A stretch of 64,000 nucleotides of DNA from Cytophagaceae bacterium ABcell3 (lineage in GTDB: Bacteria; Bacteroidota; Bacteroidia; Cytophagales; Cytophagaceae): assembly GCA_030913385.1 (NCBI GenBank), contig CP133159.1, positions 640,584-704,583 on the forward strand, given 5' to 3'. A program made the translations under genes and the position numbers. The number at the start of each line of letters is the position of its first letter. Within the stretch, counting starts at the first letter, position 1. This document shows positions 4,132 to 64,000 of the stretch, piece after piece. The notes beneath the pieces were generated by a model, which saw only the letters and a program-made list of their open reading frames with translations, searched no databases and had not been told where the DNA came from.

Positions 4132-4921
4132 GTATCAAATAAAAAAGTGTCTATATTATTTTTCATTTTTGTTTCCGTGGACGTTAAATTATAAGCTTTT
4201 CCGTAATTCTCTAAAAGAGAATAGAGGAACGGACAGCGTTCTTTTTTTTTCTATTATTATACCTACATACAACCGTGCCAAGCTATTAAAAAAAGCAGTT
4301 GATTCTGTGCTTTCTCAAACTTATCCGCACTATGAAATATTAATAATTGACGATGGTAGCAATGACGGAACTCAAGATATGGTTTATAAGGTTTTTTCTG
4401 AAGATCTGTTAAACAAAAAAATTAGGTATGTAAATCACCCCCATAAGGGTGTAGGTTATGCTAGAAATAAAGGGTTAGAAATCGCTCAGGGTGATTTTAT
4501 TGCCTACCTTGACTCAGATAATATCTGGCATAAAAACTTTTTATCTATAATGTATAATGCACTAAAAACCGGTAGTGTGGATTGTGCTTATTGTGCAATG
4601 AGTGTCTTTAATGAGGTTGATAAAATGGTTTTTACATTATTTAACTCTCCGTTCAATAGGAAGAAGTTGCTAAAAACAAATTTCATTGACCTGAATTGTT
4701 TTGTTCATAAGCGTGAGTTATATCTAATAAAAGGAGGTTTTGATGAAACCCTTACTCGTTTGCTTGACTGGGATCTGATACTTAAATATACGTCAGGAAC
4801 AGGAGTTTTACCTGTTCCTGCGCTATTGGTCAGGTACAAAATCAGAAAATCAATACAACACATCACAACATCAAAACCTCTTGAAGAGAATGAAAAGAAG
4901 ATATTGTCTAAGTGGTCTTAA
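4097..4921 (+). CDS. Family 2 glycosyltransferase
   Basis: Classic GT2 signature FSIIIPTYNRAKLLKKAVDSVLSQTYPHYEILIIDDGSNDGT and a DSDN motif. The start may be the Met at 4118. Confidence 0.8.
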   Translation: MLKNFKSMKAIKYQIKKCLYYFSFLFPWTLNYKLFRNSLKENRGTDSVLFFSIIIPTYNRAKLLKKAVDSVLSQTYPHYEILIIDDGSNDGTQDMVYKVFSEDLLNKKIRYVNHPHKGVGYARNKGLEIAQGDFIAYLDSDNIWHKNFLSIMYNALKTGSVDCAYCAMSVFNEVDKMVFTLFNSPFNRKKLLKTNFIDLNCFVHKRELYLIKGGFDETLTRLLDWDLILKYTSGTGVLPVPALLVRYKIRKSIQHITTSKPLEENEKKILSKWS

Positions 4922-4932
4922 TGTTCTAAATC

Positions 4933-5687
4933 TTAAAACTTTCTAAAAACTGCCTGAAATTCATTGGTCATTGGTTGTGTATCAAACACCTCTTCCAGTT
5001 GGAGTGGTATATAATTCATTTCTGTTAACACACTTACCAATTCTTTAAATGAATCCATGGTGTAAACATGGCAGTGTACATCTGCATATTCTTCTTTTGA
5101 AAGTCTTTGTGCAACTTTTAGGGCTTCCTGAGGGGAAAATCGTTGCTGCTGTATTTTTTGCAGATGTTCGTTTCTCCAAACCATTTTTGCATCAACCGCT
5201 TTATGGTAAAAGAAGTGTTCAAGAATGTTATAGAAGCTCGGTTTTTTAACCTTGTTATTATAGTTGTATAAAAGGTCTATAAAAGTTGTATTTCTTCTTG
5301 TAATGTCAAAAGTATAGCGCTTGTCCGGTACGGACAGGAACAAAATTCCGTTAGTTTCAAGTATCTTTTCAATTTCCTGCAACCAACTTATAGTATCTGG
5401 TATGTGCTCAATGACATGATTTGCTATAACCACATCAAATTTTTCATTTATAACCTCTGAATATGCCGGCGTAGGGGAAATAAAATCAACTTTGACCAGC
5501 CTTTCAAGTGCATAACGTGGATTGTTCTTGCTCTTGGCAGAAAGGATTGTTTCAGAGGTATAATCCAAGTATTTAATATTAGCCTCAGATTTTAAATATG
5601 TCGGATTGTCTAAAGGGCCAATTTCTAGTAGACGTGCTTTTCTTATATCTGTTTTAGCCTCTATAATGTTTCTTTTATGCTTCCCAT
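4933..5687 (-). CDS. Class I SAM-dependent methyltransferase (start region disrupted)
   Basis: Motif DVVIANHVIEHIPD lies in the ORF at 4933..5568. The SAM-binding motif KARLLEIGPLDNP is encoded in frame upstream of the annotated TTG. No ATG/GTG/TTG start exists in that frame; an ATG at 5685-5687 is in the -1 frame across an AAAA run (5673-5676). Confidence 0.6.
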
Positions 5688-5695
5688 TTAATTAA

Positions 5696-8600
5696 TTAAA
5701 ATTTTTCTAAAAATGATAAATAATCTAAAACTGTTGTTTTTGTAGAATAGTTAGTGTTTACATCAAGATATGCATTATATCCAATTTCTTTTTTCTTTTC
5801 TATGTTTTTTTCAAGTTCTGCGATAATCGGTACAATCTCATCAATAGTGTTTACTAGAAAACCGTTTTGATTGTGACAAATCATTTCAGAATAAGCCACC
5901 GGATAAGGTGTAGTTATAAAAACTTTCTTCGCTATTCCGGCATTATAGTATTTTAAACCACTTTTCGCATTAATAAAATTATCTACATCTTCAGGTTTGA
6001 AGTTATATTGCTGAGCCAGAGATTTGATATAGGATACAGGATGATCTCCCCAGTTTATAACATAATCTGCTCCTTTAATGAAACCGAAAAGTTCATCTAA
6101 GTCAACACTGTCATAGATGTTAAGATTGTGATGTACTGGGAATTCATACTTTTCTGAAGAGAAGAAATGTATTTTAACTTTTTGCCCTTCCAGTTTCTCT
6201 GAAAGTTCGTTCATTGCTTCTAATCCGGCAGCGCCTATAGAAAAGCAGATGATATGAACGTATTCTGAGTTTAAGTCTTTTGGCTCTGCCCTTAAAAATC
6301 TGTCTGTGTCTATGCCATTTCTAAGGCAAACTGTATTTGGGTTAAACTTTAAGAGAAGCTTTTGTAAATGATTCGTTGAGGTGGTCACATAGTCACAGTT
6401 CTTAATGAATTTAAGAGGCATATCATTTTGACTATGAATAATGTAATCATCAATATCATAAATGAATGTTTTTTTGTTGCCGCCCTTTTTTTTCTTTTTT
6501 AAAACAGTTTTTAGAAAGCTCGGAGAGATTTTTTCATTTAAAGCTCCTATTCTTTGAAATACAAATATATCGTAATTGTCAAAATGAGTGTCTCTGATTT
6601 TATGCCACTTTTTGGCCTTTACCTTCACATAACGGCTAAGTTCTTTTATAATTTCAAAAGTTCTTTTTCGTGTTGAGCTTGAGTACTTGGCATTATACAC
6701 GAACAGAACTCTTTTGTTTGTAGTATTAACTAAGATTTTTTGGTTTTTATTTTTGAAATATAGCTCTTTGTTCTTTTCCCATAAAAGTTTGCTTTCTTCT
6801 GCATAAGAGTTAAAGGAACGGTGTCCATAATGATGCACATACGCATGTTTTACCCATACCGGCTTTGATCCAGAAAGTCTTATGCGGTCTATAAACTGAA
6901 CCTCCTCCCTTGACCCAAGTCCAAAACTCGTATCAAAAAAGCCTATTTCATTAATTAATTCACGTTTAAAGAATAAGCAAAATCCATTCAAGTACTCTGT
7001 TTCTTGATACTGTTCTTTTTCTCTTTCATAAAGATCTTTTCCGAAATCTTGAATTTGCTCGTAAGTCATATCAAACCTCTGTGTATGAACTTCATCTAGC
7101 TGTTGAACCACCCCATCAAAATTCTTGGCAATGCCATAAGAGGTAGACGGGCCGGTGATTACACAGTTTGCATTTTTACTGATTCCGTCCGCAAGAAATT
7201 TATTCCAGTTTTTGGTAACTATTGTATCCGAGTTGAGGAGGCATATGTAACGGCCACGTGAGTTGGTTATTATTAAGTTGCAATTGTAAGGAAATCCTTT
7301 CCTTTCAGTATTCCTCAGGTATTTCACATTATGATGATTCAACTCTAGCTCTTTTAAATAGCTTTTGGTTTCTTCGTCACTTACATCATCAATGAGGATA
7401 ACCTCATATTCTCCCGAGGTATTTTCCTGAATACTTTTGATACAGTCGCGGACATAGTCCACCTGATTGTGAATCGGGATTCCTATTGTTAATTCTACAT
7501 CAGTGGTGAAGTTGATCTCAGGGTTCTTTATGGAGAATCTTTTTAATAACTCTGTTTCAAGCTTTGTTATTGATTTTTCCCATGTAAAATCATTTATGTC
7601 TTTATATGCTTGATTGGCAATTTTTCTAGCAAGCGCAGGATCAGAGAGGATTTTTTTTACCGCTTCCGCAATAGAGGATGGATTTTTCTTTTCAACAAGT
7701 AAAGAGTTTTTATTTGTGCAGAAATCTCTGGATCCTCCAGTATCGGTTGTAATTAAAGGAGTCTTGCATAACATGGCTTCTACACTACACATACCTACAC
7801 CCTCGTACAAGCTAGCTGTTATCCATGCAGAACAGGAAGAGTATATTTCCCGCAACTCCGATTGGTCTGGGTTATAGTGATACTCTATGCCCTCAGGCAA
7901 CTCAGGGCTCTTTTCCTGGCCGAACATGACCATAGTTAGGTCTTTTATGTCTTTCTTTAGGATCTGAAAAGACTTTATTACATCTCTTGATCTTTTCCAT
8001 TCATCTTTATGATAAAGGGAGCCAATTCTGTTGCTGCGGTCTTGTGGGGTCTCAACAAACTGATCAGCGTGTATTCCGAAAGAAATCGTTTTAGCGTTTC
8101 TTCCGGTATGTTTGTGTATCTGCTCTGCTATCCAGGAGGTAGTGGCAAGAAGGTGAAAGTCTTTAATAGAAGCATTTTTGATATCCAAGTCTAAGTCGTG
8201 AACCCCGAAATGCATAAACAACAAAAATTTTAAACCTTTTGACTCGGGAAGTTTGCTGAAGATCTCTGCTGATTTATTATTGCCGTAAGTGATAAAAATA
8301 TCTGCATCAGGAAGCCTTTCTTCTAGGGAGTCTATAGAGCCAGGCCTTTCAAAATATAAGTCTATCACTGGAACAGAAAAATTGAACCAGTCTGATTTGC
8401 TACCTGAATACTGACGAATAAAGTTTACTACATGTCCTTTCTCTTGCAGTAACTTAGCAATCATCATTAGCCTTTTTGTGCCTCCGTGAATATTTGTAGA
8501 AGGGGTTAGTATACTTATTATAAGCTTTCCTTGTTTAGGCCTTGGTCGTTCGGATAATTTACTTTTTTTCCATATGTTATATTTCTGTATAGTGTTTTCA

Positions 8601-52146: not shown

Positions 52147-52455
52147 TTATACAGTTTGGGGCACTTTCAGAATATACTCTTTGATCCTTTGTGCGTCTGA
52201 AGGCTTGAAGTTTACCAGTTTTACCTTTTGTCTTACCACATTATGTCCGAATACCGTCAGCAGCTCTCCGAAGGAAGAGTTAAGAAAAGATGAAGACATA
52301 GGTGTGCATCCACTTAAAGATAATCTGACGTCACTTCCTTGCCTTAATTCTTTTTCTATAGCTAAATAAAGCAAATGGCCATCAGCGTTAGTAGATGTGC
52401 CTTTGACTATATCGTAAAGGTTTATCTTTTTCATATGAATGGGCTTTATATTCAA
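52147..52455 (-). CDS. STAS-like small protein (DUF4325-like)
   Basis: About 100 aa; ...VRLSLSGCTPMSSSFLNSSFGEL... resembles my recollection of STAS-like DUF4325. Confidence 0.35.
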   Translation of the reverse strand: MNIKPIHMKKINLYDIVKGTSTNADGHLLYLAIEKELRQGSDVRLSLSGCTPMSSSFLNSSFGELLTVFGHNVVRQKVKLVNFKPSDAQRIKEYILKVPQTV

Positions 52456-52790
52456 ATTTACGAAAATTATAAATTAAATTCTATATCTGCTTATATTTCA
52501 GAAATATAGTAGGCCTTCAAGTACTCTGTTGTTGCGTATTCAATATGCTTTAAAACACTGGCTGAAATATTTTGGGTCAGAGTAACCAGTGTTATCTATT
52601 GCAAAGGTGCTTTATTTCTTATTGATTTATTGAGTTTTAGATTATATTTATGGTTAATTATATAAAGGCAGCTAGTATGAGAGATATGGTAAAACTGCCT
52701 GCTTTTGCAATGCATCTGAGTGCTGGTGTTTTGTCACGGGACAGGAGCCTTTTGCAAGCCGGATTTGATATTTACTTTAGAACAGTGATT

Positions 52791-53765
52791 ATGAAAGCTC
52801 AATTTTTAATATTATCAGCTATTTTTTTTGTGCTCCTTTCTTGTAAGAAGGAGCCAGAGGAAGAAGTGTCTCTGGAAGGGGATAAGGGTGTTTCTTTGTT
52901 TTTTTCTTCTAATAGGACAGGAAACTATGAGATTTATGTAAAAAAAGATGGTTCGTTAGTACAGGTAACAGATGATAAAAACCTGGACAGTTGGTGGCTC
53001 CGGGTTTCGCCGGATGGGAAAACCTTAATATGCTATCGTTCCCGTGCAATCAATAAAAACAATAACTATGAAGATGCAACCCTTTGGTCCATGAACCTCG
53101 ATGGCTCAGACGCTAAAAAACTAATTGCTTTGGACGACAATCAGTGGAAAGCCCAAGGAGTTGCCGACTGGTCTCCCGACGGCACCCAACTGGTAATGGC
53201 AGCAATAGAAGGCGCTTCCAATAGGTGGCATTTGTTTATAACAGATAGTAATGGTAAAAATGCTAAGAAAGTATCATCCAGAACAAGTATTTATCTTGAC
53301 CCGTCCTTTTCGCCTGATGGGTCAAAAATAGTGTTCTCCTCTTTTCCTCTCGGTTATAATGGTACAGACCTGGCAAAGCTTGAGATTTATACGATGAACA
53401 CAGATGGCTCTGAAGAGACAAGACTTACCTTTGACGACATAAGAGACCACGACCCTTATTGGGCCCCAGATGGAAAGGAAATTGCTTTTGAATCTGCGAT
53501 GGAGCCAGAATATCTTGATGTTGGCAAATGGGCATTGAGAAGCGTGGAGCCGGATGGTAGCAACTTAAGGGTTATTTTGCATGATGGACATATCAATACC
53601 GTTCCTCGCTGGAATAAAAGTTCAGAAGTCTTATATTTCCATAAATTAAATTTTGGGGCTCCAGGTTTCAGGATTTATAAAGTTAGTAAAGATGGCTCTG
53701 GCCTAAAGCAGCTTACATCAGGACCCGGTCACTATGATGATACAGATGTGGAAGTAGTGGATTGA
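52791..53765 (+). CDS. TolB-like PD40 beta-propeller lipoprotein
   Basis: MKAQFLILSAIFFVLLSCKK lipobox; repeated SPDGxxL/VF PD40 motifs. Confidence 0.7.
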   Translation: MKAQFLILSAIFFVLLSCKKEPEEEVSLEGDKGVSLFFSSNRTGNYEIYVKKDGSLVQVTDDKNLDSWWLRVSPDGKTLICYRSRAINKNNNYEDATLWSMNLDGSDAKKLIALDDNQWKAQGVADWSPDGTQLVMAAIEGASNRWHLFITDSNGKNAKKVSSRTSIYLDPSFSPDGSKIVFSSFPLGYNGTDLAKLEIYTMNTDGSEETRLTFDDIRDHDPYWAPDGKEIAFESAMEPEYLDVGKWALRSVEPDGSNLRVILHDGHINTVPRWNKSSEVLYFHKLNFGAPGFRIYKVSKDGSGLKQLTSGPGHYDDTDVEVVD

Positions 53766-53935: not shown

Positions 53936-55045
53936 ATGATTACTTCTTTGGAAATAAAAGGTTATAAGTCGATAAAGGAAATGCGCTTGGAATTAAAACC
54001 AGTAAATGTTCTTATTGGCAGTAATGGATCTGGCAAAAGCAACTTTATTTCCTTTTTTAAGTTCCTTTCTGCAGTCTTCAAAGGCCAGTTGCAGAGGTTT
54101 ATTATAGAACACAAGACCGACAATATTTTATATTTTGGGAGAAAGACTACTGAAAGCCTTTTTGGCAGATTGGAGTTTTGCTACGGTAAGGTAAATACAT
54201 TTTCTTACTCATTTAGGCTTGACCAAGACAAGGAAGGTGGTTTGGTTATTCAAGAAGAGGGGGTCGGTTATAACCCTAGTGAAAGTCCCAAGAAGTGGTT
54301 TTATCACAGTCAAGCAGGATATGAAAGCAAAATTCAGAACGCGACATCTGTTAAAGATAGAACCCTCGTTTTTGACTATGTAAAGAATGTCCTCGTTTAT
54401 CATTTTCATGACACCTCTTCTACCTCCTATTTAAGAAGGAGTTGTGATATTACAGATAATAAAGTTTTAAAGCCAGATGGCAGAAACCTTCCAGCTTTTC
54501 TATACGACCTTAAGATAAAGCATCCTGTTATTTATAAGAGGATTATTAAAACTGTTCAATCTGTAGCGCCTTATATATATGATTTGATTCTTGAACCTGG
54601 TAGCGTCCCTGGGAAGGAGTCTGAAATTGAGTTGCGGTGGATTGATGCAAGCGATTTGGAGTCAAATTTTTCAGCGTATCAATTTTCCGATGGGACTTTG
54701 CGCTTTATTGCTTTAGCGACACTTTTGCTACAGCCGGATCCGCCTTCTGTAATCATTGTTGATGAGCCGGAACTTGGGCTGCATCCAATGGCTATTTCCA
54801 AACTTGCAGGTATGGTGCAATCTGCATCGGCCAAAGCGCAGGTAATCGTATCGACACAGTCTGTTAACTTGGTGGACTGTTTTGCTCCTGAAGACATTAT
54901 TACGGTAGATCGAGATGGAAAGGGCAAGCAGTCAATTTTTAATAGGTTAGATCCCCATGAGCTGGAAGACTGGCTTAAAGGACATTCTCTTGGCGAACTT
55001 TGGAGTAGGAACATTATTAACTCAGCCCAGCCTTTTACCAAATGA
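53936..55045 (+). CDS. AAA_21/ABC-type ATPase (OLD/RecF-like)
   Basis: Walker A LIGSNGSGKSNF, Q-loop, Walker B VIIVDEPELGLHP, and signature-like LAGMVQSASAKAQVIVSTQS. Confidence 0.8.
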   Translation: MITSLEIKGYKSIKEMRLELKPVNVLIGSNGSGKSNFISFFKFLSAVFKGQLQRFIIEHKTDNILYFGRKTTESLFGRLEFCYGKVNTFSYSFRLDQDKEGGLVIQEEGVGYNPSESPKKWFYHSQAGYESKIQNATSVKDRTLVFDYVKNVLVYHFHDTSSTSYLRRSCDITDNKVLKPDGRNLPAFLYDLKIKHPVIYKRIIKTVQSVAPYIYDLILEPGSVPGKESEIELRWIDASDLESNFSAYQFSDGTLRFIALATLLLQPDPPSVIIVDEPELGLHPMAISKLAGMVQSASAKAQVIVSTQSVNLVDCFAPEDIITVDRDGKGKQSIFNRLDPHELEDWLKGHSLGELWSRNIINSAQPFTK

Positions 55046-55698
55046 AACGTTTGATCATTATCGGAGAGGGGGCTACTGAGCAAGAATTTTGCAAGGGCGT
55101 GCTGGCGCCTTATTTTTATAGTAAGGGCATACGGATAGAAAATCCGAAAATAAGGGCTTCCCGAGGAGGAATAGTGCCTTGGCCAAAGTTAAAAGATGAG
55201 ATTGAGATTTATTTAAAAAACGACACTAATGCCTATGTTACTTTGCTCATAGATTATTATGGGCTTTATGACAAACACTATTTTCCTTGTTGGGAAGAAG
55301 CGCATAAGGAAGCAACGAAGGCAGAATGCGTGTCTGTCATAGAATTAGGCATGAAAGAGGAGGTGAACAAGAAGCTTAGCGATCGTTTTATACCATATAT
55401 TCAACTACACGAGCTAGAAGCGCTAATTTTTAGTGACCCTTCAGTGGTTTTAAGTAATTTTGAGGAAAGCGAGTTTAAAAATATTGAATATTTAGACGCG
55501 ACACTAAAGGAGTTCCCCAACCCCGAGGATATCAACAACAATAAACAAACTGCACCTTCCAAACGTCTAGAAAGGATTTTTAGGAATTATAGGAAAGTAG
55601 TTTTCGGTAGCTTGCTGCTTGAAGAAATAGGCCTTCCAAAGATTAGGAAGAAATGCCCACGTTTTAATGCTTGGATTCAGGAGTTGGAAAGTATTTGA
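55042..55698 (+). CDS. DUF4276-like protein with TOPRIM-like N-terminal motif
   Basis: MKRLIIIGEGATEQEF resembles the TOPRIM EG..E loop. It overlaps the ATPase gene by ATGA. Confidence 0.6.
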   Translation: MKRLIIIGEGATEQEFCKGVLAPYFYSKGIRIENPKIRASRGGIVPWPKLKDEIEIYLKNDTNAYVTLLIDYYGLYDKHYFPCWEEAHKEATKAECVSVIELGMKEEVNKKLSDRFIPYIQLHELEALIFSDPSVVLSNFEESEFKNIEYLDATLKEFPNPEDINNNKQTAPSKRLERIFRNYRKVVFGSLLLEEIGLPKIRKKCPRFNAWIQELESI

Positions 55699-55741: not shown

Positions 55742-56011
55742 CTACGCTGTATAACTACCATTAATCATATCCCATATAAACTGTCTTCCTTGGGCAGTTT
55801 TAAGCTGTTTTTCTCTTTCCAAGGCTTCTTGCTTGGTTTGAAAAGCTTCTTTGTAAAATAAAATCCATGGACGATATCTGATTGTCCAGCCTTTAGTGGC
55901 ATGTTCATTATGTGAATTTACAATTTCTTTAAGGTTGGATGTGCTGCCAATGTATATTTTTTGGTATTGCGGAGAATATAAGACGTAGGTGTGGTACATG
56001 ATAGCAAGCAA
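55742..56011 (-). CDS. GIY-YIG domain protein
   Basis: YVLYSPQYQKIYIGSTSNLKEIVNSHN. Confidence 0.75.
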   Translation of the reverse strand: MLAIMYHTYVLYSPQYQKIYIGSTSNLKEIVNSHNEHATKGWTIRYRPWILFYKEAFQTKQEALEREKQLKTAQGRQFIWDMINGSYTA

Positions 56012-56185: not shown

Positions 56186-56258
<73 letters not shown>

Positions 56259-56266
56259 CTAGAGAG

Positions 56267-56467: not shown

Positions 56468-57010
56468 ATGAAAAGGGAAATAATAAACGGAAAGACTAGT
56501 ATTCAGGGTTTTCATACTCAAGAAAATAGGCCTTACGCATTAACAGCTCCAGTAAAATGTGTAGATAGTAAAGCATGGTTAGGGTCAGGCTATTATTTTT
56601 GGACAGACGAAACCTTTGCAAGATATTGGGGTATAGATTATAAAATGAAAACTGGCAGCTATGATATTTATACTGGCTATATTGAAGAAAACAACTTGCT
56701 TAATACCACCTTTTGTGAAGAAGATTATTTTTTTCTAAAAAATAACATTGAAAAGGCTATTAAAAGAATTAAAAAAATCCCAAAAGAAGTAAACTTAAAA
56801 CAAGTACATCGTTTTCTGCAAAAAGAAGTCTGGGGGAAACTTGGAATTAAAGGTATAATTTATGATGACCTCCCTCACAATAGTTATAAAAAAAATAGAA
56901 CATATTCACTGCTAGATCCCTTATATTATAATAAGCGTATACAGATAGTAGTTTTTACTCTTGATTGTGTTAACAATTTTGAAGAATATTTAATTGAACA
57001 AACCTCCTGA
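56468..57010 (+). CDS. Hypothetical 180-aa protein (first gene of the SecB-like trio; toxin candidate)
   Basis: No motif I recognise; overlaps the next gene. Confidence 0.4.
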   Translation: MKREIINGKTSIQGFHTQENRPYALTAPVKCVDSKAWLGSGYYFWTDETFARYWGIDYKMKTGSYDIYTGYIEENNLLNTTFCEEDYFFLKNNIEKAIKRIKKIPKEVNLKQVHRFLQKEVWGKLGIKGIIYDDLPHNSYKKNRTYSLLDPLYYNKRIQIVVFTLDCVNNFEEYLIEQTS

Positions 57011-57251
57011 TAATATGAAAACAAAATCAAAATTTGACCTAAATGAGATGCAAAGGAAGTTTGACAAAATTCTTGATTCTTTTAGTGATGAGGATTTGGT
57101 TGAGTGGTTTGAATTAGATGAAGAAGAGCAGTTGGAGAATTTATTAAAAGGAAAAACTATAACTTTGTCTTCTTGTAAAAGATGCGGTGGCTCTTTCGCT
57201 GAAGAAATTGAGCACACCATAGGCAATGATCATTCTCCTTTAGCAGCATGA
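56994..57251 (+). CDS. Small acidic protein with CxxC...HxxxxxH (antitoxin candidate)
   Basis: An 85-aa ORF; SSCKRCGGSFAEEIEHTIGNDH. Overlaps both neighbours. Confidence 0.4.
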   Translation: MNKPPDNMKTKSKFDLNEMQRKFDKILDSFSDEDLVEWFELDEEEQLENLLKGKTITLSSCKRCGGSFAEEIEHTIGNDHSPLAA

Positions 57252-57670
57252 CAAAGTATACAGCAGAAGAACAGCCTAAGATTCGCTTAAAGCGGTTCAA
57301 TGTTATTAATATAAAATTTAACATTGAAGAAGCCGAATGGGGCAACAGGGATGTTTTTAATAGTTCTGAATACTCGGTAAGCTTTAAATTGCTTGATAGA
57401 GAAAAAGATTTTTTTGATATTGTTTTTGACATAACTCTTAAAGGCGAAAATAGAGCTTTTCTTCTTGAAACATCATTTTTAGCATCCTTTGAGAGCAAAG
57501 GAGTAGAAGTTAACGACAAATATTTAGAAAGCCCACTTATAAAACATAATGCCCCTGCAATTGTTTTTCCTTTTATAAGGGCATTTCTTTCTACTATTAT
57601 GTTGAATGCTGGTTATAATCCGATAATTTTGCCTTCATTTAATTTTCATAGTCAGAAAGAAATAAAGTGA
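57248..57670 (+). CDS. SecB-like chaperone
   Basis: HNAPAIVFPFIRAFLSTIMLNAGYNPIILPSFNF parallels E. coli SecB [34 protein letters not shown]. Confidence 0.6.
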   Translation: MTKYTAEEQPKIRLKRFNVINIKFNIEEAEWGNRDVFNSSEYSVSFKLLDREKDFFDIVFDITLKGENRAFLLETSFLASFESKGVEVNDKYLESPLIKHNAPAIVFPFIRAFLSTIMLNAGYNPIILPSFNFHSQKEIK

Positions 57671-57741: not shown

Positions 57742-58592
57742 TCAAACCTTCCTCTTTGGCATACAAAACTCTACTCCTTCCTTGAGTCCCTGATCAGAAA
57801 CCTGTTCTCTTACCATATTCCATAATTTCCTCATCCCGTTAGTATCAAGTGCTTTATCTTTATTCATGGTCACTCCCTGAGATTTGGCTTCACTAGTAAA
57901 CCCTTCCAGCCTAATTGCAGGTCTTTTAAACCCAACGGAGTTGTACTCATCATATGTTTTACAGGGGGCAAAACTGTACATACCTTCATAAGGGCTGGAG
58001 TAAGTGGCACCTAAATAAAGTTTAAAAACAGTTTCCGGTTTTGCTTGAGTACATACTGGCTCTAAACCTACTTTGTAAAACACCTGTGGCACTTTATCTT
58101 TTAAGGATCTCACCTTGTCTAATTTATATGGGATTGAATCTTTAATGACAAAAACGGTATCAAGGCAGAATGCCCCGTTGACAGATGAGCCAAACAGTAT
58201 AACAGAACCTGGCGGAAGCTCTGTTAGTCCTTGTCCAGGTTTTGTACCTTGTTGGCAAATACTATAATAAAAGGTACTGCCGAATACGAATGGGTCGGTA
58301 TTGTGTAAGTCCTTATAATTGGGTAGCAGTTGGTAATATGGCTCAAACAGATAAGATGGTAGGCCTCCTGAATTAATTGAGTAGGTCTTTAGCAAACTTG
58401 CCGGCGCCTCCCACTCTCCCCAAAAAACCAGTTCAGTTTCGACTGTACGATCTTTTTGTAAATCTACATACTTGCCTTACGACTTCAAAAAAGTTCTTTT
58501 ATGTTCACTAGGTAAAGTGTTCCAAGGCTTGGACTCTCCATCCGGTTTTGATTCGGGGCCAGGATGTAAAAATTGTATCAACTGTTTCATAG
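57742..58592 (-). pseudogene. Hypothetical gene whose 283-codon frame is interrupted by one in-frame TAA
   Basis: ATG at 58590-58592, then MKQLIQFLHPGPE...KRTFLKS, a TAA, then the same frame continues GKYVDLQ...LLKTYSINSGG... to the stop at 57742. The ORF track lists only the TTG-initiated part 57742..58395. Confidence 0.45.
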
Positions 58593-58705: not shown

Positions 58706-61099
58706 ATGGATAAAAAAGCTCTTTCAGAACGAGACATCTGCACAAAGTTCATTACCCCTGCTATTGAAAAGGCTGGCTGGGACAAACAAACCCAACTTTT
58801 AGAGGAAGTTACCTTTACAGATGGAAAGATTCATGTAAGGGGAAAGTTGACCGGAAGAGGGGCAAGAAAAAGAGCGGACTATATTCTCTATTATAAACCT
58901 AATATTCCCATAGCCATCATTGAGGCAAAAGATAATAAACATTCGGTTCGTGCCGGCATTCAACAAGCTTTGGATTATGCTGCCATTCTGGACATACCCT
59001 GTGTTTTCAGCAGTAATGGGGATGGATTTCTTTTCCACGACCGCACTTCGGAGGGTGAGGATATAGAAAAAGAAATTGACCTGGAAAGCTTCCCTTCTCC
59101 AAAAGAGCTATGGGAAAAATATAAAAAGTATAAGGGCATCATAACACCTGAAGCAGAAAAAATGGCTGCGCAGGAATACTATTTTGACGGAAGCGGCAGG
59201 AGTCCAAGGTATTATCAGCAAGTTGCGGTAAACCGTGCCGTAGAGGCTATCGCCAAGGGGCAGGATCGGATTTTGCTGGTGATGGCCACCGGTACTGGTA
59301 AAACCTATACGGCTTTCCAGATTATACACAGGCTATGGAAAAGCGGTGCAAAAAAGCGGATTTTGTTCCTCGCTGACCGGAATGCACTTATTGACCAGAC
59401 AAAGCGGGGCGACTTTAAGCACTTCAAGGATAAAATGACGGTGATTAAGCACCGCATGATTGACAAAAGCTATGAGGTTTATCTGGCCTTGTACCAGGGT
59501 CTGAGCGGAGCAGATGAAGATGCCAATGCCTATAAACAGTTTTCAAGGGAATTCTTTGATCTTATAGTAATAGATGAGTGCCACCGGGGAAGCGCAAAAG
59601 AAGACAGTGCCTGGAGAGAGATTTTAAATTATTTTGATAAGGCTACGCATATAGGCCTCACAGCTACGCCAAAAGAAACCAAAGAGGTTTCCAATTCTGA
59701 TTATTTTGGTGAACCGGTTTACACGTATTCTTTAAAACAAGGTATCGATGATGGGTTTCTTGCTCCTTACAGGGTTATTCGGGTTAGTTTAAATGTTGAT
59801 GCCGAAGGCTGGAGGCCGGAACAAGGCAAAAAAGACAAGTCCGGTAATGAAGTGGAAGACAGGGTATACAACCGCAGAGACTTTGACCGTAACCTGATAA
59901 TTGATGAAAGGACAGAAGCCGTTGCCCGTAAACTTACTGAGTTCCTGCATGGTTATGACAGATTTGCGAAAACCATTGTTTTTTGTAACGATATTGACCA
60001 TGCAGAGCGGATGCGTTCGGCATTATCAAACCTGAATGCGGATTTGGTGGCCAAAAACCATAAGTATATCATACAGATTACAGGGGACAATGAGGAAGGT
60101 AAACGTGAGCTGGACAATTTTATAAATCCTGAGGAAATTTATCCTGTAATTGCAACCACTTCTGAATTAATGACAACCGGCGTGGACGCGCAGACTTGCA
60201 AGGTCATTGTGCTGGATGCAGAAATTAAGTCTATGACCAAATTTAAGCAGATAGTAGGACGGGGTACACGTATAAATGAGGAGTATGATAAACTTTACTT
60301 TACCATCCTGGATTTCCGGAACGTAACTGACCTGTTCGCAGATAAAGATTTTGACGGCGATCCTGTCAGGATTAAAGAAACACGTGAGGAGGATAATCTT
60401 CAAGGAGTAGTTGACGAAGAGACTTGTAGTGGCACTGAAGTTGTCGATGAACTTACCGGAGAACCAATAGATCTGACAGAAGGAAAAAACTTTTATTCAA
60501 AACCTGACCTTGCATCTAAAGCAAGTGAACCAAGGCCTAAGGTTTATGTTAACGGCGTGGATGTTTCTGTTTTAATATCCCGGGAGATGCATTTTGACAA
60601 CAATGGCAAGCCTATAACCACAAGCCTGAAAGACCATACCCGGGAAATTATTAAAGAAAAGTTTTCCTCTCTGGATGATTTCCTGAACACCTGGAGCAAT
60701 GCTGAAAAGAAAGAAGTTATAATAAAGGAGCTGGAAGAGCAGGGTGTGTTGGTAGAAGCCCTAAGAGATGCGGTAAACCGTGAGGTTGATTTGTTTGACC
60801 TGATTTGCCATGTGGCCTTTGACCAGCCACCGCTTACGCGCAAAGAAAGGGCAAACAATGTGAAAAAGAGAAATTATTTTACAAAATACGGCCCTGCGGC
60901 GAGAAAAGTACTGGAGGCGCTTCTGGATAAATATGCCGATGAAGGCGTTACCAATATTGAAAGCATGGAGGTGCTGAAGGTTAAGCCGCTTACAGAATTT
61001 GGTTCGGCCATAGAGATTCTGGGCAATTTCGGAGGCAAGAAGCAGTACCTGGAGGCTATTAAGGAACTGGAAAAAGAATTATATAAAACAGGTGCATAG
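58706..61099 (+). CDS. hsdR: Type I restriction enzyme R subunit
   Basis: N-terminal HsdR nuclease region (ADYILYY...IAIIEAKD), helicase motifs LLVMATGTGKT and DECHRG, and a C-terminal HsdR domain. Confidence 0.85.
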   Translation: MDKKALSERDICTKFITPAIEKAGWDKQTQLLEEVTFTDGKIHVRGKLTGRGARKRADYILYYKPNIPIAIIEAKDNKHSVRAGIQQALDYAAILDIPCVFSSNGDGFLFHDRTSEGEDIEKEIDLESFPSPKELWEKYKKYKGIITPEAEKMAAQEYYFDGSGRSPRYYQQVAVNRAVEAIAKGQDRILLVMATGTGKTYTAFQIIHRLWKSGAKKRILFLADRNALIDQTKRGDFKHFKDKMTVIKHRMIDKSYEVYLALYQGLSGADEDANAYKQFSREFFDLIVIDECHRGSAKEDSAWREILNYFDKATHIGLTATPKETKEVSNSDYFGEPVYTYSLKQGIDDGFLAPYRVIRVSLNVDAEGWRPEQGKKDKSGNEVEDRVYNRRDFDRNLIIDERTEAVARKLTEFLHGYDRFAKTIVFCNDIDHAERMRSALSNLNADLVAKNHKYIIQITGDNEEGKRELDNFINPEEIYPVIATTSELMTTGVDAQTCKVIVLDAEIKSMTKFKQIVGRGTRINEEYDKLYFTILDFRNVTDLFADKDFDGDPVRIKETREEDNLQGVVDEETCSGTEVVDELTGEPIDLTEGKNFYSKPDLASKASEPRPKVYVNGVDVSVLISREMHFDNNGKPITTSLKDHTREIIKEKFSSLDDFLNTWSNAEKKEVIIKELEEQGVLVEALRDAVNREVDLFDLICHVAFDQPPLTRKERANNVKKRNYFTKYGPAARKVLEALLDKYADEGVTNIESMEVLKVKPLTEFGSAIEILGNFGGKKQYLEAIKELEKELYKTGA

Positions 61100-61155
61100 A
61101 CTTCGTTTCCTTAAACGATTACAAAAAAAAAAATTAAAGTCGCTTAAATAACACA

Positions 61156-62802
61156 ATGGCAAATTTAAAAGGAATTATTGACAGCATCCGCAAAATCATG
61201 TGGCAGGATACAGGTTTGAATGGCGATGCGCAGCGGGTGGAACAATTGGGCTGGATGCTGTTCCTGAAAATATTTTCTGATAAAGATAAAGAACTCGAAG
61301 TACTCAATGATGCCTATGTAAGCCCTATACCTGAAGCGCTGCACTGGGATGCCTGGGCGGGAGATGATGAAGGTATTACCGGTGATGAGCTGATTGAATT
61401 TGTGGACCGTAGGTTGTTCCCTGAGTTAAGAAACCTTGCGATTGGCTACACGGATGACCTTGCAAACAAGCGTGCTAAAATTGTGAAGGAGGTTTTTGAA
61501 GGGAACAACAATTACATGAAGAGCGGTATCAACATCCGAAAGGTGTTGAACAAACTGAATGAGATTGATTTTAATATTGCCAAAGATCGCCACGCTTTTG
61601 GGGAACTGTACGAAACCATACTGAAAGAATTGCAAAGTGCCGGGAAAAGCGGCGAGTTCTATACCCCAAGAGCCATTACGGAGTTTATCTGTGAAATGAT
61701 AAACCCTCAGCTGGACGAAAAAATCCTGGATCCCAGTTGTGGTACAGGGGGTTACCTGACCGCAGCCATTGAACACCTAAAGGATCAGGCCAATAGTGTT
61801 GAGGAAAGGGAAAGTATTGCGCAGAATGTCATAGGCTGGGAGTATAAACCCCTGCCATACCTGTTGGCAACCACCAACCTTATCCTGCATGACATGGAGG
61901 TTCCGAACATTACCTTCCGTGACTCGCTGGACCAGCCTTTGAGCAACTATACCGAAAAAAACAGGGTAGATGCCATTCTTGCCAACCCGCCTTTTGGAGG
62001 CATTGTTGCCAACAACAACGAAAACAATTTTCCGCAGAGCTACCGTACCAAAGAAAGTGCGGACCTGTTTCTGGTGCTGATGATTCACCTGCTGAAAAAG
62101 GGCGGACGTGCAGGTATCGTATTACCAGATGGCTCCCTTACGGGCGATGGCGTTAAACAAAGGGTTAGGCAGCGATTGCTTGAAGAGTGCAACCTGCACA
62201 CCATCATTCGTCTGCCGAATTCGGTATTTCAGCCCTATGCAACTGTAGCCACCAATCTGCTTTTCTTTACCAAAGGTGAGCCTACTTCTGAAATCTGGTA
62301 CTATGAGCACCGCCTACCGGAAGGACAAAAGGCCTACAGCAAAACCAGACCCATTAACATCAGCGAGTTTGAACCGATAAAGGACTGGTGGAACAAGCGT
62401 GAAGAGTCTGAAATTTGCTGGAAGGTAAACATTAAAGAAAGAATAGCGGAGGCGAAGCAAAAGGCAGAAACTTATTGGGACAAAGCAGAAGAGGCAAACA
62501 AAACTATAAGCAGACTGAAGGCGGAACTGGCTGGAATAAACCAGAAGATAAAAGATGATGCCACGCTGGAAAAAAGAAAAAAGTCTAAACTAAAGGACAT
62601 CCAGGAGCAAGAGGTATTGGCCAAAAACAACCAGCAGACCGGAGACAATATTTACTATCAGGCTTTTGACCTTGACATAAAAAATCCGCATAAAAAAGAA
62701 GAAGCCGTAGAATACAGCAGCAGTGAACTGATGCTAATGCTCGAAAACTCCTTTGCCCAAAGTGCTAAATTGCTGAACCAGTTAAAGGAGGTGGTGAAAT
62801 GA
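61156..62802 (+). CDS. hsdM: Type I RM N6-adenine methyltransferase M subunit
   Basis: FYTPRAI, LDPSCGTGG and the NPPFGG catalytic motif. Confidence 0.9.
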   Translation: MANLKGIIDSIRKIMWQDTGLNGDAQRVEQLGWMLFLKIFSDKDKELEVLNDAYVSPIPEALHWDAWAGDDEGITGDELIEFVDRRLFPELRNLAIGYTDDLANKRAKIVKEVFEGNNNYMKSGINIRKVLNKLNEIDFNIAKDRHAFGELYETILKELQSAGKSGEFYTPRAITEFICEMINPQLDEKILDPSCGTGGYLTAAIEHLKDQANSVEERESIAQNVIGWEYKPLPYLLATTNLILHDMEVPNITFRDSLDQPLSNYTEKNRVDAILANPPFGGIVANNNENNFPQSYRTKESADLFLVLMIHLLKKGGRAGIVLPDGSLTGDGVKQRVRQRLLEECNLHTIIRLPNSVFQPYATVATNLLFFTKGEPTSEIWYYEHRLPEGQKAYSKTRPINISEFEPIKDWWNKREESEICWKVNIKERIAEAKQKAETYWDKAEEANKTISRLKAELAGINQKIKDDATLEKRKKSKLKDIQEQEVLAKNNQQTGDNIYYQAFDLDIKNPHKKEEAVEYSSSELMLMLENSFAQSAKLLNQLKEVVK

Positions 62803-64000
62803 GTTGGAAAATTGAAACGTTTGGAAGTCTATTACAAGAAAGTCGAATACCTGCTGAAAACCCTGATGCTAATAAAAGGATAAGGGTAAAATTAAATGTT
62901 CTGGGAGTTGAAAAACGGCCTGTAGGGGTAGAAAAAGAAGGTGCAACAAATCAGTACATTAGAAAAGCAGGACAGTTTATTTATGGCAAACAGAACTTTC
63001 ATAAAGGCGCTTTCGGAATAGTGCCAGAATCTTTAGATGGATTTGAAACCAGCGCAGATATCCCTTCTTTTGATGTAAGAGAAGACTGCTTGCCAGAATG
63101 GATATTCTATTTTTTTAAAGTTGGAAATAAATTTTTGGAACTTGAAAAGTTCGCAAGAGGAGTTGGTTCAAAAAGAATTCATCCAAAACAAATTGAAGAG
63201 CTGGAAATTCCGCTTCCTCCAATCAGGATACAAGAAAAAGTTATAGGTAAAGTAAAAAAACTTGAATCATCAGGACAGGAGCTTTCCACAGAACTCACCC
63301 ACCAGCTTGACCTGGTAAAACAGCTTCGGCAGGCTTTTCTAAGGGAGGCCATTCAGGGAAAACTTGTTCCGCAAGACCCGAATGATGAACCGGCAAGCGT
63401 GCTTCTGAAAAAAATAAAAGCTGAAAAAGAGCAGTTAATAAAAGAGAAAAAAATTAAAAAAGGGAAACCGCTGCCACCAGTCAGTGAAGAGGAGGTTCCT
63501 TTTGATATTCCGGACAATTGGGTTTGGTGTAGGTTGGGGGAGGTAGTTGAACTTATTTCTGGACAGGATTTAAATCCAAGTCAATATTCCGACCAAAAAA
63601 CAGATGGCCTACCCTATCTTACTGGCGCAAGTAATTTTAATAACGGCAACGTTATTCTAAATAGATGGACAAAATCTCCTAGATCAGTAGCATATAAGGG
63701 AGATTTGTTGGTCACCTGCAAAGGCTCAGGGATTGGGAAAATGGCAACTTTGGAGGCTAAAAAGGTTCATATTGCCAGGCAAATAATGGCGATAAGGAAT
63801 TTTGCTTCGCTGCCTTCTTATTTTATACAAAAAATTGTTGAATTTAATGTGACTGATTACAAATCAAAATCTAAGAGTTCTATCCCTGGGATTGGTAGAG
63901 ATATTGTATTAAATACTTTATCCCCTCTTCCACCTCTTGCCGAACAACTTCGCATTGTTGCTAAACTTGAAGAGCTAATGAACTACTGCGACCAACTGGA
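62799..64000 (+). CDS. hsdS: Type I RM specificity subunit (3' end beyond window)
   Basis: ATG overlaps the hsdM stop (ATGA). Two TRDs are separated by a conserved LREAIQGKL helix; the C-terminal LAEQLRIVAKLEELMNYCDQL lies at the window edge. Confidence 0.8.
   Translation, partial: MSWKIETFGSLLQESRIPAENPDANKRIRVKLNVLGVEKRPVGVEKEGATNQYIRKAGQFIYGKQNFHKGAFGIVPESLDGFETSADIPSFDVREDCLPEWIFYFFKVGNKFLELEKFARGVGSKRIHPKQIEELEIPLPPIRIQEKVIGKVKKLESSGQELSTELTHQLDLVKQLRQAFLREAIQGKLVPQDPNDEPASVLLKKIKAEKEQLIKEKKIKKGKPLPPVSEEEVPFDIPDNWVWCRLGEVVELISGQDLNPSQYSDQKTDGLPYLTGASNFNNGNVILNRWTKSPRSVAYKGDLLVTCKGSGIGKMATLEAKKVHIARQIMAIRNFASLPSYFIQKIVEFNVTDYKSKSKSSIPGIGRDIVLNTLSPLPPLAEQLRIVAKLEELMNYCDQL

Follow-up and report, generated by a model that had tools for sequence, protein, structure and literature searches.

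One paper places 'MADS3-4' and AbiL alongside PARIS, Gabija and OLD among systems that combine an ATP-binding cassette (ABC) ATPase with a TOPRIM component. In PARIS, AriA sequesters AriB, and ATP-dependent recognition of a phage protein frees AriB, which dimerises and cleaves tRNA-Lys. HEC-01 (Hma-embedded candidate 1) consists of an ABC ATPase together with a TOPRIM-domain partner embedded in Hma systems, and alignment of HEC-01B to Bp OLD was reported to show a conserved metal-binding site (Payne et al., bioRxiv 10.1101/2024.01.29.577857). We identified a two-gene operon of this type in the genome of Cytophagaceae bacterium ABcell3, within a stretch of 64,000 nucleotides of contig CP133159.1 (assembly GCA_030913385.1, positions 640,584 to 704,583 of the forward strand; hereafter the window, from whose first letter all positions are counted). 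HEC-01 is already catalogued as a candidate anti-phage system, and the ABcell3 pair is a new member, with only 65-67% identity to its nearest relatives. On this account the pair ranks as an addition to a known family.

The two genes lie on the forward strand. Gene A (53936..55045) encodes an ABC ATPase of 369 amino acids (aa) that matches Pfam AAA_21 over the whole profile (E = 2.5e-32, profile 1-304/304). Gene B (55042..55698) encodes a DUF4276 protein of 218 aa (Pfam E = 2.7e-55, profile 2-192/192). As the first-pass annotation had reported, the reading frames overlap by the four bases of an ATGA start/stop sequence (55042..55045), which can be read directly from the DNA and implies translational coupling, and the smaller protein begins with MKRLIIIGEGATEQEF, as quoted there. 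Both proteins are 100% identical to database entries of ABcell3, which are annotated as 'AAA family ATPase' for A and as 'DUF4276 family protein' for B. In PADLOC-DB v2, A matches the HEC-01A model PDLC04175 (E = 3.1e-130, residues 2-363 on profile 6-360/363) and B matches the HEC-01B model PDLC04188 (E = 4.7e-75, residues 1-217 on profile 12-225/230). The PADLOC comparison proposed in that annotation therefore finds both proteins matching HEC-01 end to end. Other PADLOC models for A (PDC-M07A, AriA, AbiLi, mad3, GajA and Old) score far below HEC-01A, and the only models matched by B are those of HEC-01B. We are close to certain that the pair belongs to HEC-01, as judged by every feature testable here. 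It resembles the described systems in having an ABC ATPase gene followed on the same strand by a gene for a small TOPRIM-like protein, but differs in that the ABcell3 copy is outside any Hma or restriction-modification (R-M) operon and stands alone between PD40 and GIY-YIG genes. A separate observation concerns the PADLOC model PDLC04144, which is labelled HEC-01B. It is matched by A (E = 3.2e-27, residues 172-366) and not by B, which suggests that it is a mislabelled or fused-variant model.

Relatives of B were sought by a pattern scan of 185,579 species genomes (one genome per species), using patterns taken from the ABcell3 protein. The scan recovered 47 loci with 30-54% identity, in Bacteroidota, Pseudomonadota, Cyanobacteriota, Planctomycetota, Chlamydiota, Bacillota, Actinomycetota, Campylobacterota, Chloroflexota and others. 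At 90% identity, B alone falls into more than 3,000 clusters. A homolog of A (35-63% identity) is encoded directly upstream of B, on the same strand, at 46 of the 47 loci; the one exception is a truncated B fragment. The pairing of A and B in independent genomes is far beyond chance, and the proposal that such ATPase and TOPRIM cassettes recur is upheld for this family. Of 45 junctions that could be scored, 28 show the same 4-nucleotide overlap, and at every junction the spacing lies within -8 to +18 nucleotides. Pairwise distances among A proteins track those among B proteins (r = 0.805, a value reached by 0 of 2000 permutations); thus, the genes co-evolve and are inherited as a unit. No conserved third gene was identified in Pfam scans of 150 neighbouring open reading frames (ORFs; up to two per side) at the 46 loci.

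Some of these loci have distinctive surroundings. In the closest relative, from a Bacteroidota metagenome-assembled genome (GCA_039819065.1, 1366-7372), an A-B pair with 65% identity lies between the gene for an N6_N4 methyltransferase of 533 aa and that for a ResIII protein of 880 aa. The junctions there are 0-4 nucleotides, so that a type III-like R-M operon encloses the pair, and a RhuM-family gene is next. At another locus the pair is followed by a second AAA_21 ATPase gene and then by a related ResIII gene, and at a third the pair lies within a type I locus. The pair is carried on plasmids in 13 records. On the mobilizable plasmid pTR11_2 of Acinetobacter sp. TR11 (10,958 bp, MOBQ) it occupies 4883-6639, between vapBC and tetR/tet(39), which shows that the cassette travels with resistance and toxin-antitoxin genes on small plasmids.

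Protein A has the fold of an SMC/Rad50-type head, not that of a transporter nucleotide-binding domain, and does not have a long coiled coil. The Walker A motif or P-loop (GSNGSGKSN, residues 28-36, 54017..54043), a variant of the ABC signature (SDGT, residues 251-254, 54686..54697) and the Walker B motif running into the start of the D-loop (VIIVDEPELGLHP; VIIVDEPE, residues 272-279 with D276 and E277, 54749..54772) are retained in this order, and all are at least 90% conserved among 43 syntenic homologs. The residues at this level include G28, N30, G31, G33, K34, S35 and N36 of Walker A, S251, D252 and G253 of the signature (which are also invariant in close homologs of A), and D276-E277-P278-E279. 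In ABC ATPases the H-loop residue is normally histidine. By its position after strand 302-307 of the model, we assign the H-loop of A to T307-Q308-S309 (54854..54862), three residues that are at least 90% conserved in the 43 syntenic homologs and do not vary among 41 close ones. The first-pass annotation credited the ATPase with all the motifs of the ABC/OLD type; this stands for Walker A, the signature and Walker B but not for the H-loop, where Gln308 takes the place of the histidine.

The AlphaFold2 model of protein B is confident (pLDDT 91.7; pTM 0.88). It has strands at residues 2-8, 30-33, 64-71 and about 117-121, with a helix (residues 11-26) after the first of these. A TOPRIM-like core (residues ~1-131) is followed by a C-terminal half that is all helical. 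The sequence E9-G-A-T-E13 (55066..55080), at the end of strand beta1, supplies the glutamate of the TOPRIM position and a second glutamate at +4; E9 is present in 41 and E13 in all of 42 divergent homologs. D71 (55252..55254, in D-Y-Y-G), at the end of strand beta3, is in the position of the first aspartate of the TOPRIM DxD motif and is present in 42/42. Just after strand beta4, H123-E124-L-E126 (55408..55419) contains an acidic pair whose members are candidate ligands of a second metal. Both E124 and E126 are invariant in the 42 homologs, where the motif is [H/Y]-E-x-E. The DRFIPYIQ motif just upstream was one of several patterns used to find B loci, and its invariance among the loci recovered is therefore by construction. 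In the helical half, E162 (55525..55527) is part of a conserved P-E-x-I-N...P-S-K-R motif. E162 and K185 are found in all 42 homologs, and N165, S173 and R175 in 39 of them.

The catalytic set of Bp OLD comprises E400, E404, D455, D457, T506, E508 and K562. At the end of beta1, B has the E-x-x-x-E spacing of E400 and E404, to which E9 and E13 probably correspond. It is plausible that E124/E126 and K185 are the counterparts of T506/E508 and K562 (6NK8). The resemblance to a TOPRIM acidic loop that was proposed earlier is supported by E9, E13 and D71, although the DxD motif is incomplete. The assignment of B to TOPRIM agrees with two published analyses, and one paper classes DUF4276, including Mad4, within the TOPRIM superfamily. 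The assignment is supported but not overwhelmingly so.

At the level of architecture the pair works like PARIS, AbiL, OLD/Gabija and MADS, yet it is distinct from each of them. PARIS combines the ABC ATPase AriA with AriB, a DUF4435 TOPRIM nuclease of about 305 aa, whereas B has 218 aa and no match to DUF4435 (Pfam) or AriB (PADLOC), and for lack of this match we rejected identification of the pair as PARIS. PARIS is also often carried by phages or satellites. In contrast, 50,697 phage records contained no member of the B family, for which PHROGs likewise has no family, and we accordingly rejected a phage-borne module of the PARIS or P2 Old kind. OLD and GajA carry the ATPase and TOPRIM domains fused in one polypeptide, unlike the two separate ORFs of ABcell3. 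Class 2 OLD and Gabija have a UvrD-like helicase as partner, whereas the ABcell3 pair adjoins PD40 and GIY-YIG genes and no helicase. B further differs from OLD by the missing second aspartate of DxD and by having no Toprim_Old match in Pfam. As the pair is neither fused nor next to a helicase gene, it was not accepted as an OLD nuclease or Gabija. AbiL (the AbiLi ATPase with RloB-like AbiLii) and Mad3/Mad4 of MADS share with the pair an organization of two genes, for an ABC ATPase and a partner of the TOPRIM superfamily. A matches the AbiLi model (E = 2.1e-29), but B has no AbiLii or RloB match, and AbiL was dismissed for this reason. A also matches mad3 models (E = 5.1e-28), but B has no mad4 match in PADLOC, and A scores 127.3 bits against the NCBIfam MAD3 equivalog NF047739, for which the cutoff is 420. 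No other mad genes occur around the pair, whose immediate neighbours are the PD40 and GIY-YIG genes. A mad2-like match is seen only for the type I HsdM, at a distance of 5.5 kb, and MTase_I is by far the better model for that protein (E = 3.8e-202 vs 7.7e-60). MADS was rejected on the combination of the MAD3 cutoff, the lack of a mad4 match and the absence of the other mad genes.

On balance, we think it probable, with considerable room for doubt, that the pair is a self-contained, horizontally mobile operon of the HEC-01 type that acts as an anti-phage or anti-plasmid module with an ATPase sensor and a nuclease effector. The first-pass description of a split defence module like OLD, PARIS or AbiL is supported in the form of an ABC ATPase and DUF4276 pair matching HEC-01. 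A, as a compact ATPase of the SMC/Rad50 class, would probably dimerise on binding ATP and serve as the sensor or switch. B, as a small TOPRIM-like protein with an OLD-like helical half and an acidic site that looks intact, is a predicted metal-dependent nuclease and the putative effector. Such an anatomy is in keeping with the nucleases under ABC ATPase control that serve in anti-phage immunity. PARIS is the closest working model because A and B are separate, translationally coupled polypeptides. By analogy with it, control of B by A would most likely follow a 'hold and release' scheme in which A forms a complex with B and keeps it inactive. A cue from an invader, coupled to binding or hydrolysis of ATP, would then act as the trigger that frees or activates B. 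Freed B might cut nucleic acid, either by nicking DNA as in OLD and Gabija or by cleaving tRNA as AriB does, and so halt the infection; a defence phenotype of the ABcell3 copy would be expected on this scheme.

Several results weigh against a defence role of this kind. A HEC-01 representative expressed in E. coli MG1655 deltaRM blocked no phage that was tried (Payne et al., bioRxiv 10.1101/2024.01.29.577857). A later study reported protection of E. coli B by one HEC-01 cluster of cold-seep metagenomic origin, effective against at least one of the phages T4, T5 and T7. With one negative and one positive defence test, the immune function of HEC-01 is only half-established. In A and in the HEC-01A homologs examined (at least 90% of the 43 syntenic ones), the H-loop position holds glutamine in place of histidine (Gln308 in A), which may make ATP hydrolysis by A slow, altered or absent. 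The same substitution may suit A to act as a slow ATPase that serves as a nucleotide-bound switch. In B, the second aspartate of the TOPRIM DxD is found in 0/42 homologs; position 73 is Y, F or H and the motif reads D-[LFY]-[YF]. Foldseek gave no significant match in the PDB for the model of B, and PDB sequences searched with a B-family profile matched only at chance level, and thus gave no solved relative. For these two reasons the support for the TOPRIM assignment falls short of overwhelming. Hidden Markov model (HMM) searches of Pfam, PADLOC, NCBIfam and PDB sequences did not link B to TOPRIM, DUF4435 or RloB families: DUF4276 was the only Pfam match at E <= 1 (with no Toprim, Toprim_Old, DUF4435 or RloB), and no NCBIfam family was found. 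The profile comparison with TOPRIM, OLD, DUF4435 and RloB that had been suggested earlier thus returned no match. The absence of the B family from phage genomes is a further difference from PARIS and OLD. Finally, the neighbours of the pair differ in every genome and are mostly unrelated housekeeping genes, and hence there is no general enrichment of the family in defence islands. The few neighbours associated with defence or mobility include more AAA_21 ATPases, dynamin-like GTPases, Schlafen/AlbA_2 proteins, recombinases, one type I HsdR and one PstI-type enzyme. The location was described in the first-pass annotation as typical of a defence island, which fits this window but not the family at large.

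We weighed four other explanations, none of which is favoured. The pair could be a selfish addiction or stabilisation module of the toxin-antitoxin type, kept on plasmids and islands, in which a toxic nuclease B is curbed by A and has no dedicated anti-phage role. Its patchy distribution across phyla, tight translational coupling and carriage on plasmids, including a small one with adjacent vapBC, would suit such a module, as would the HEC-01 member that gave no defence. An ABC ATPase of 369 aa would, however, be an unusual antitoxin; related pairs of an ABC protein and a nuclease (PARIS, Septu and Gabija) are defence systems, and one HEC-01 member did protect. We regard addiction as unlikely, while noting that its mechanism would overlap with that of abortive-infection defence and that the two are difficult to tell apart. 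Quite unlikely, in our estimate, is an R-M accessory that works with the nearby type I enzymes, as Mad3/Mad4 do in MADS and Rlo proteins in type I loci. The HsdR/M/S genes are 3 kb downstream of the pair on the same strand, the closest relative lies between methylase and ResIII genes, one other pair is inside a type I locus, mad3 models give weak matches to A, and the literature places 'MADS3-4' among the ABC and TOPRIM systems. Between the pair and hsdR, however, are an opposite-strand GIY-YIG gene, a tRNA gene with its own terminator, a three-gene cassette like PD-T4-9 and an opposite-strand ORF. The MAD3 score of A (127 bits) is well short of the cutoff of 420, and B has no mad4 match in PADLOC and no match in NCBIfam. 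Using four R-M query proteins, we found R-M-like genes within 6 kb of the pair at only 2 of the 47 loci. Most copies are therefore without an R-M partner, and an obligatory link of the pair to R-M systems was rejected.

It is highly unlikely that B is a catalytically inactive protein derived from TOPRIM that serves for binding or as an adaptor, with the pair acting without cleavage (e.g., by binding or blocking a target). The reduction of DxD to one aspartate in 42/42 homologs and the lack of a TOPRIM match by Foldseek are compatible with it. Six acidic residues and a lysine are nevertheless conserved at positions that fit a two-metal site, and the second aspartate of Bp OLD touches the metal only via waters and tolerates single substitutions. 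The metal-binding site described for HEC-01B (Payne et al., bioRxiv 10.1101/2024.01.29.577857) also argues for an active enzyme. The least probable of the four explanations, and one to which we give very little weight, is a housekeeping role in DNA repair or maintenance, with A as an ATPase like SbcCD, RecF or Rad50 and B as its partner nuclease. The pair has no conserved genomic position, its neighbours vary in every genome, the scan with patterns from ABcell3 B gave just 47 loci in 185,579 species genomes, and 13 records are plasmid-borne. A is without a coiled coil, B is unlike Mre11/SbcD, and the best profile matches are to models of defence systems.

Within the preferred reading of the pair as a defence operon, we tentatively raise the rather doubtful idea that HEC-01 is a mechanistically distinct, split branch of OLD-like systems. 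It would join a slowly hydrolysing switch with a glutamine H-loop to a TOPRIM site with one aspartate and H/Y-E-x-E, whose substrate or metal chemistry would be unlike that of both OLD (DNA) and AriB (tRNA-Lys), and the ABcell3 copy would provide active, stand-alone immunity against phages of Bacteroidota. If true, this could account for the negative outcome of the first E. coli test. The pair gives this widespread two-gene family a clean, stand-alone example in a Cytophagaceae bacterium, a host that has been little studied. The obligate pairing, co-evolution, E/E/D/E/E/E/K set, missing second aspartate and glutamine H-loop provide targets for mutation and a PARIS-like hypothesis. The finding opens no new category and leaves the understanding of such systems unchanged.

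The coordinates confirm the earlier placement of the pair between TolB-like and GIY-YIG genes, near a tRNA gene and a type I R-M system. Upstream is the PD40/TolB-like gene (52650-53765), which is preceded by a gene on the reverse strand for a DUF4325 (STAS-like) protein (52147-52455, 102 aa; Pfam E = 3.9e-11, no PADLOC match). Downstream, the GIY-YIG gene (55742-56011, reverse strand, 89 aa) is convergent with the pair, and tRNA-Met (56186-56259) is followed by a strong terminator hairpin. The GC content of the pair is not distinct from that of its surroundings. A sigma-70 promoter scan, which is unsuited to Bacteroidota promoters, gave 7 sites vs 7.5 expected. The window contains no att-like repeat of the 3' end of tRNA-Met from which the limits of an island might be drawn.

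A complete-looking type I R-M operon is encoded on the forward strand from 58706 to 64000. It comprises an EcoEI-type hsdR (58706-61099; PADLOC REase_I, E = 0), hsdM (61156-62802; PADLOC MTase_I, the match given above) and hsdS, which starts at 62799 with an ATGA overlap and continues past the end of the window. Before hsdR, and after a PD-T4-9-like cassette, is an unannotated ORF of 217 aa on the reverse strand (57742-58395) that has no match in Pfam, PADLOC or PHROGs and thus lies within the defence cluster. Directly downstream of tRNA-Met, three tightly packed small genes on the forward strand (56468-57670) look like a PD-T4-9-type defence cassette (toxin, antitoxin and SecB chaperone), as judged from profile matches and gene order. 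The first encodes a protein of 180 aa (56468-57010; PADLOC PD-T4-9_A, E = 3.4e-10). The second, an ORF of 85 aa without a match (56994-57251), is at the position of PD-T4-9_B, and the third encodes a SecB-like protein of 140 aa (57248-57670; Pfam SecB, E = 2.7e-10; PADLOC PD-T4-9_C, E = 3.7e-25).
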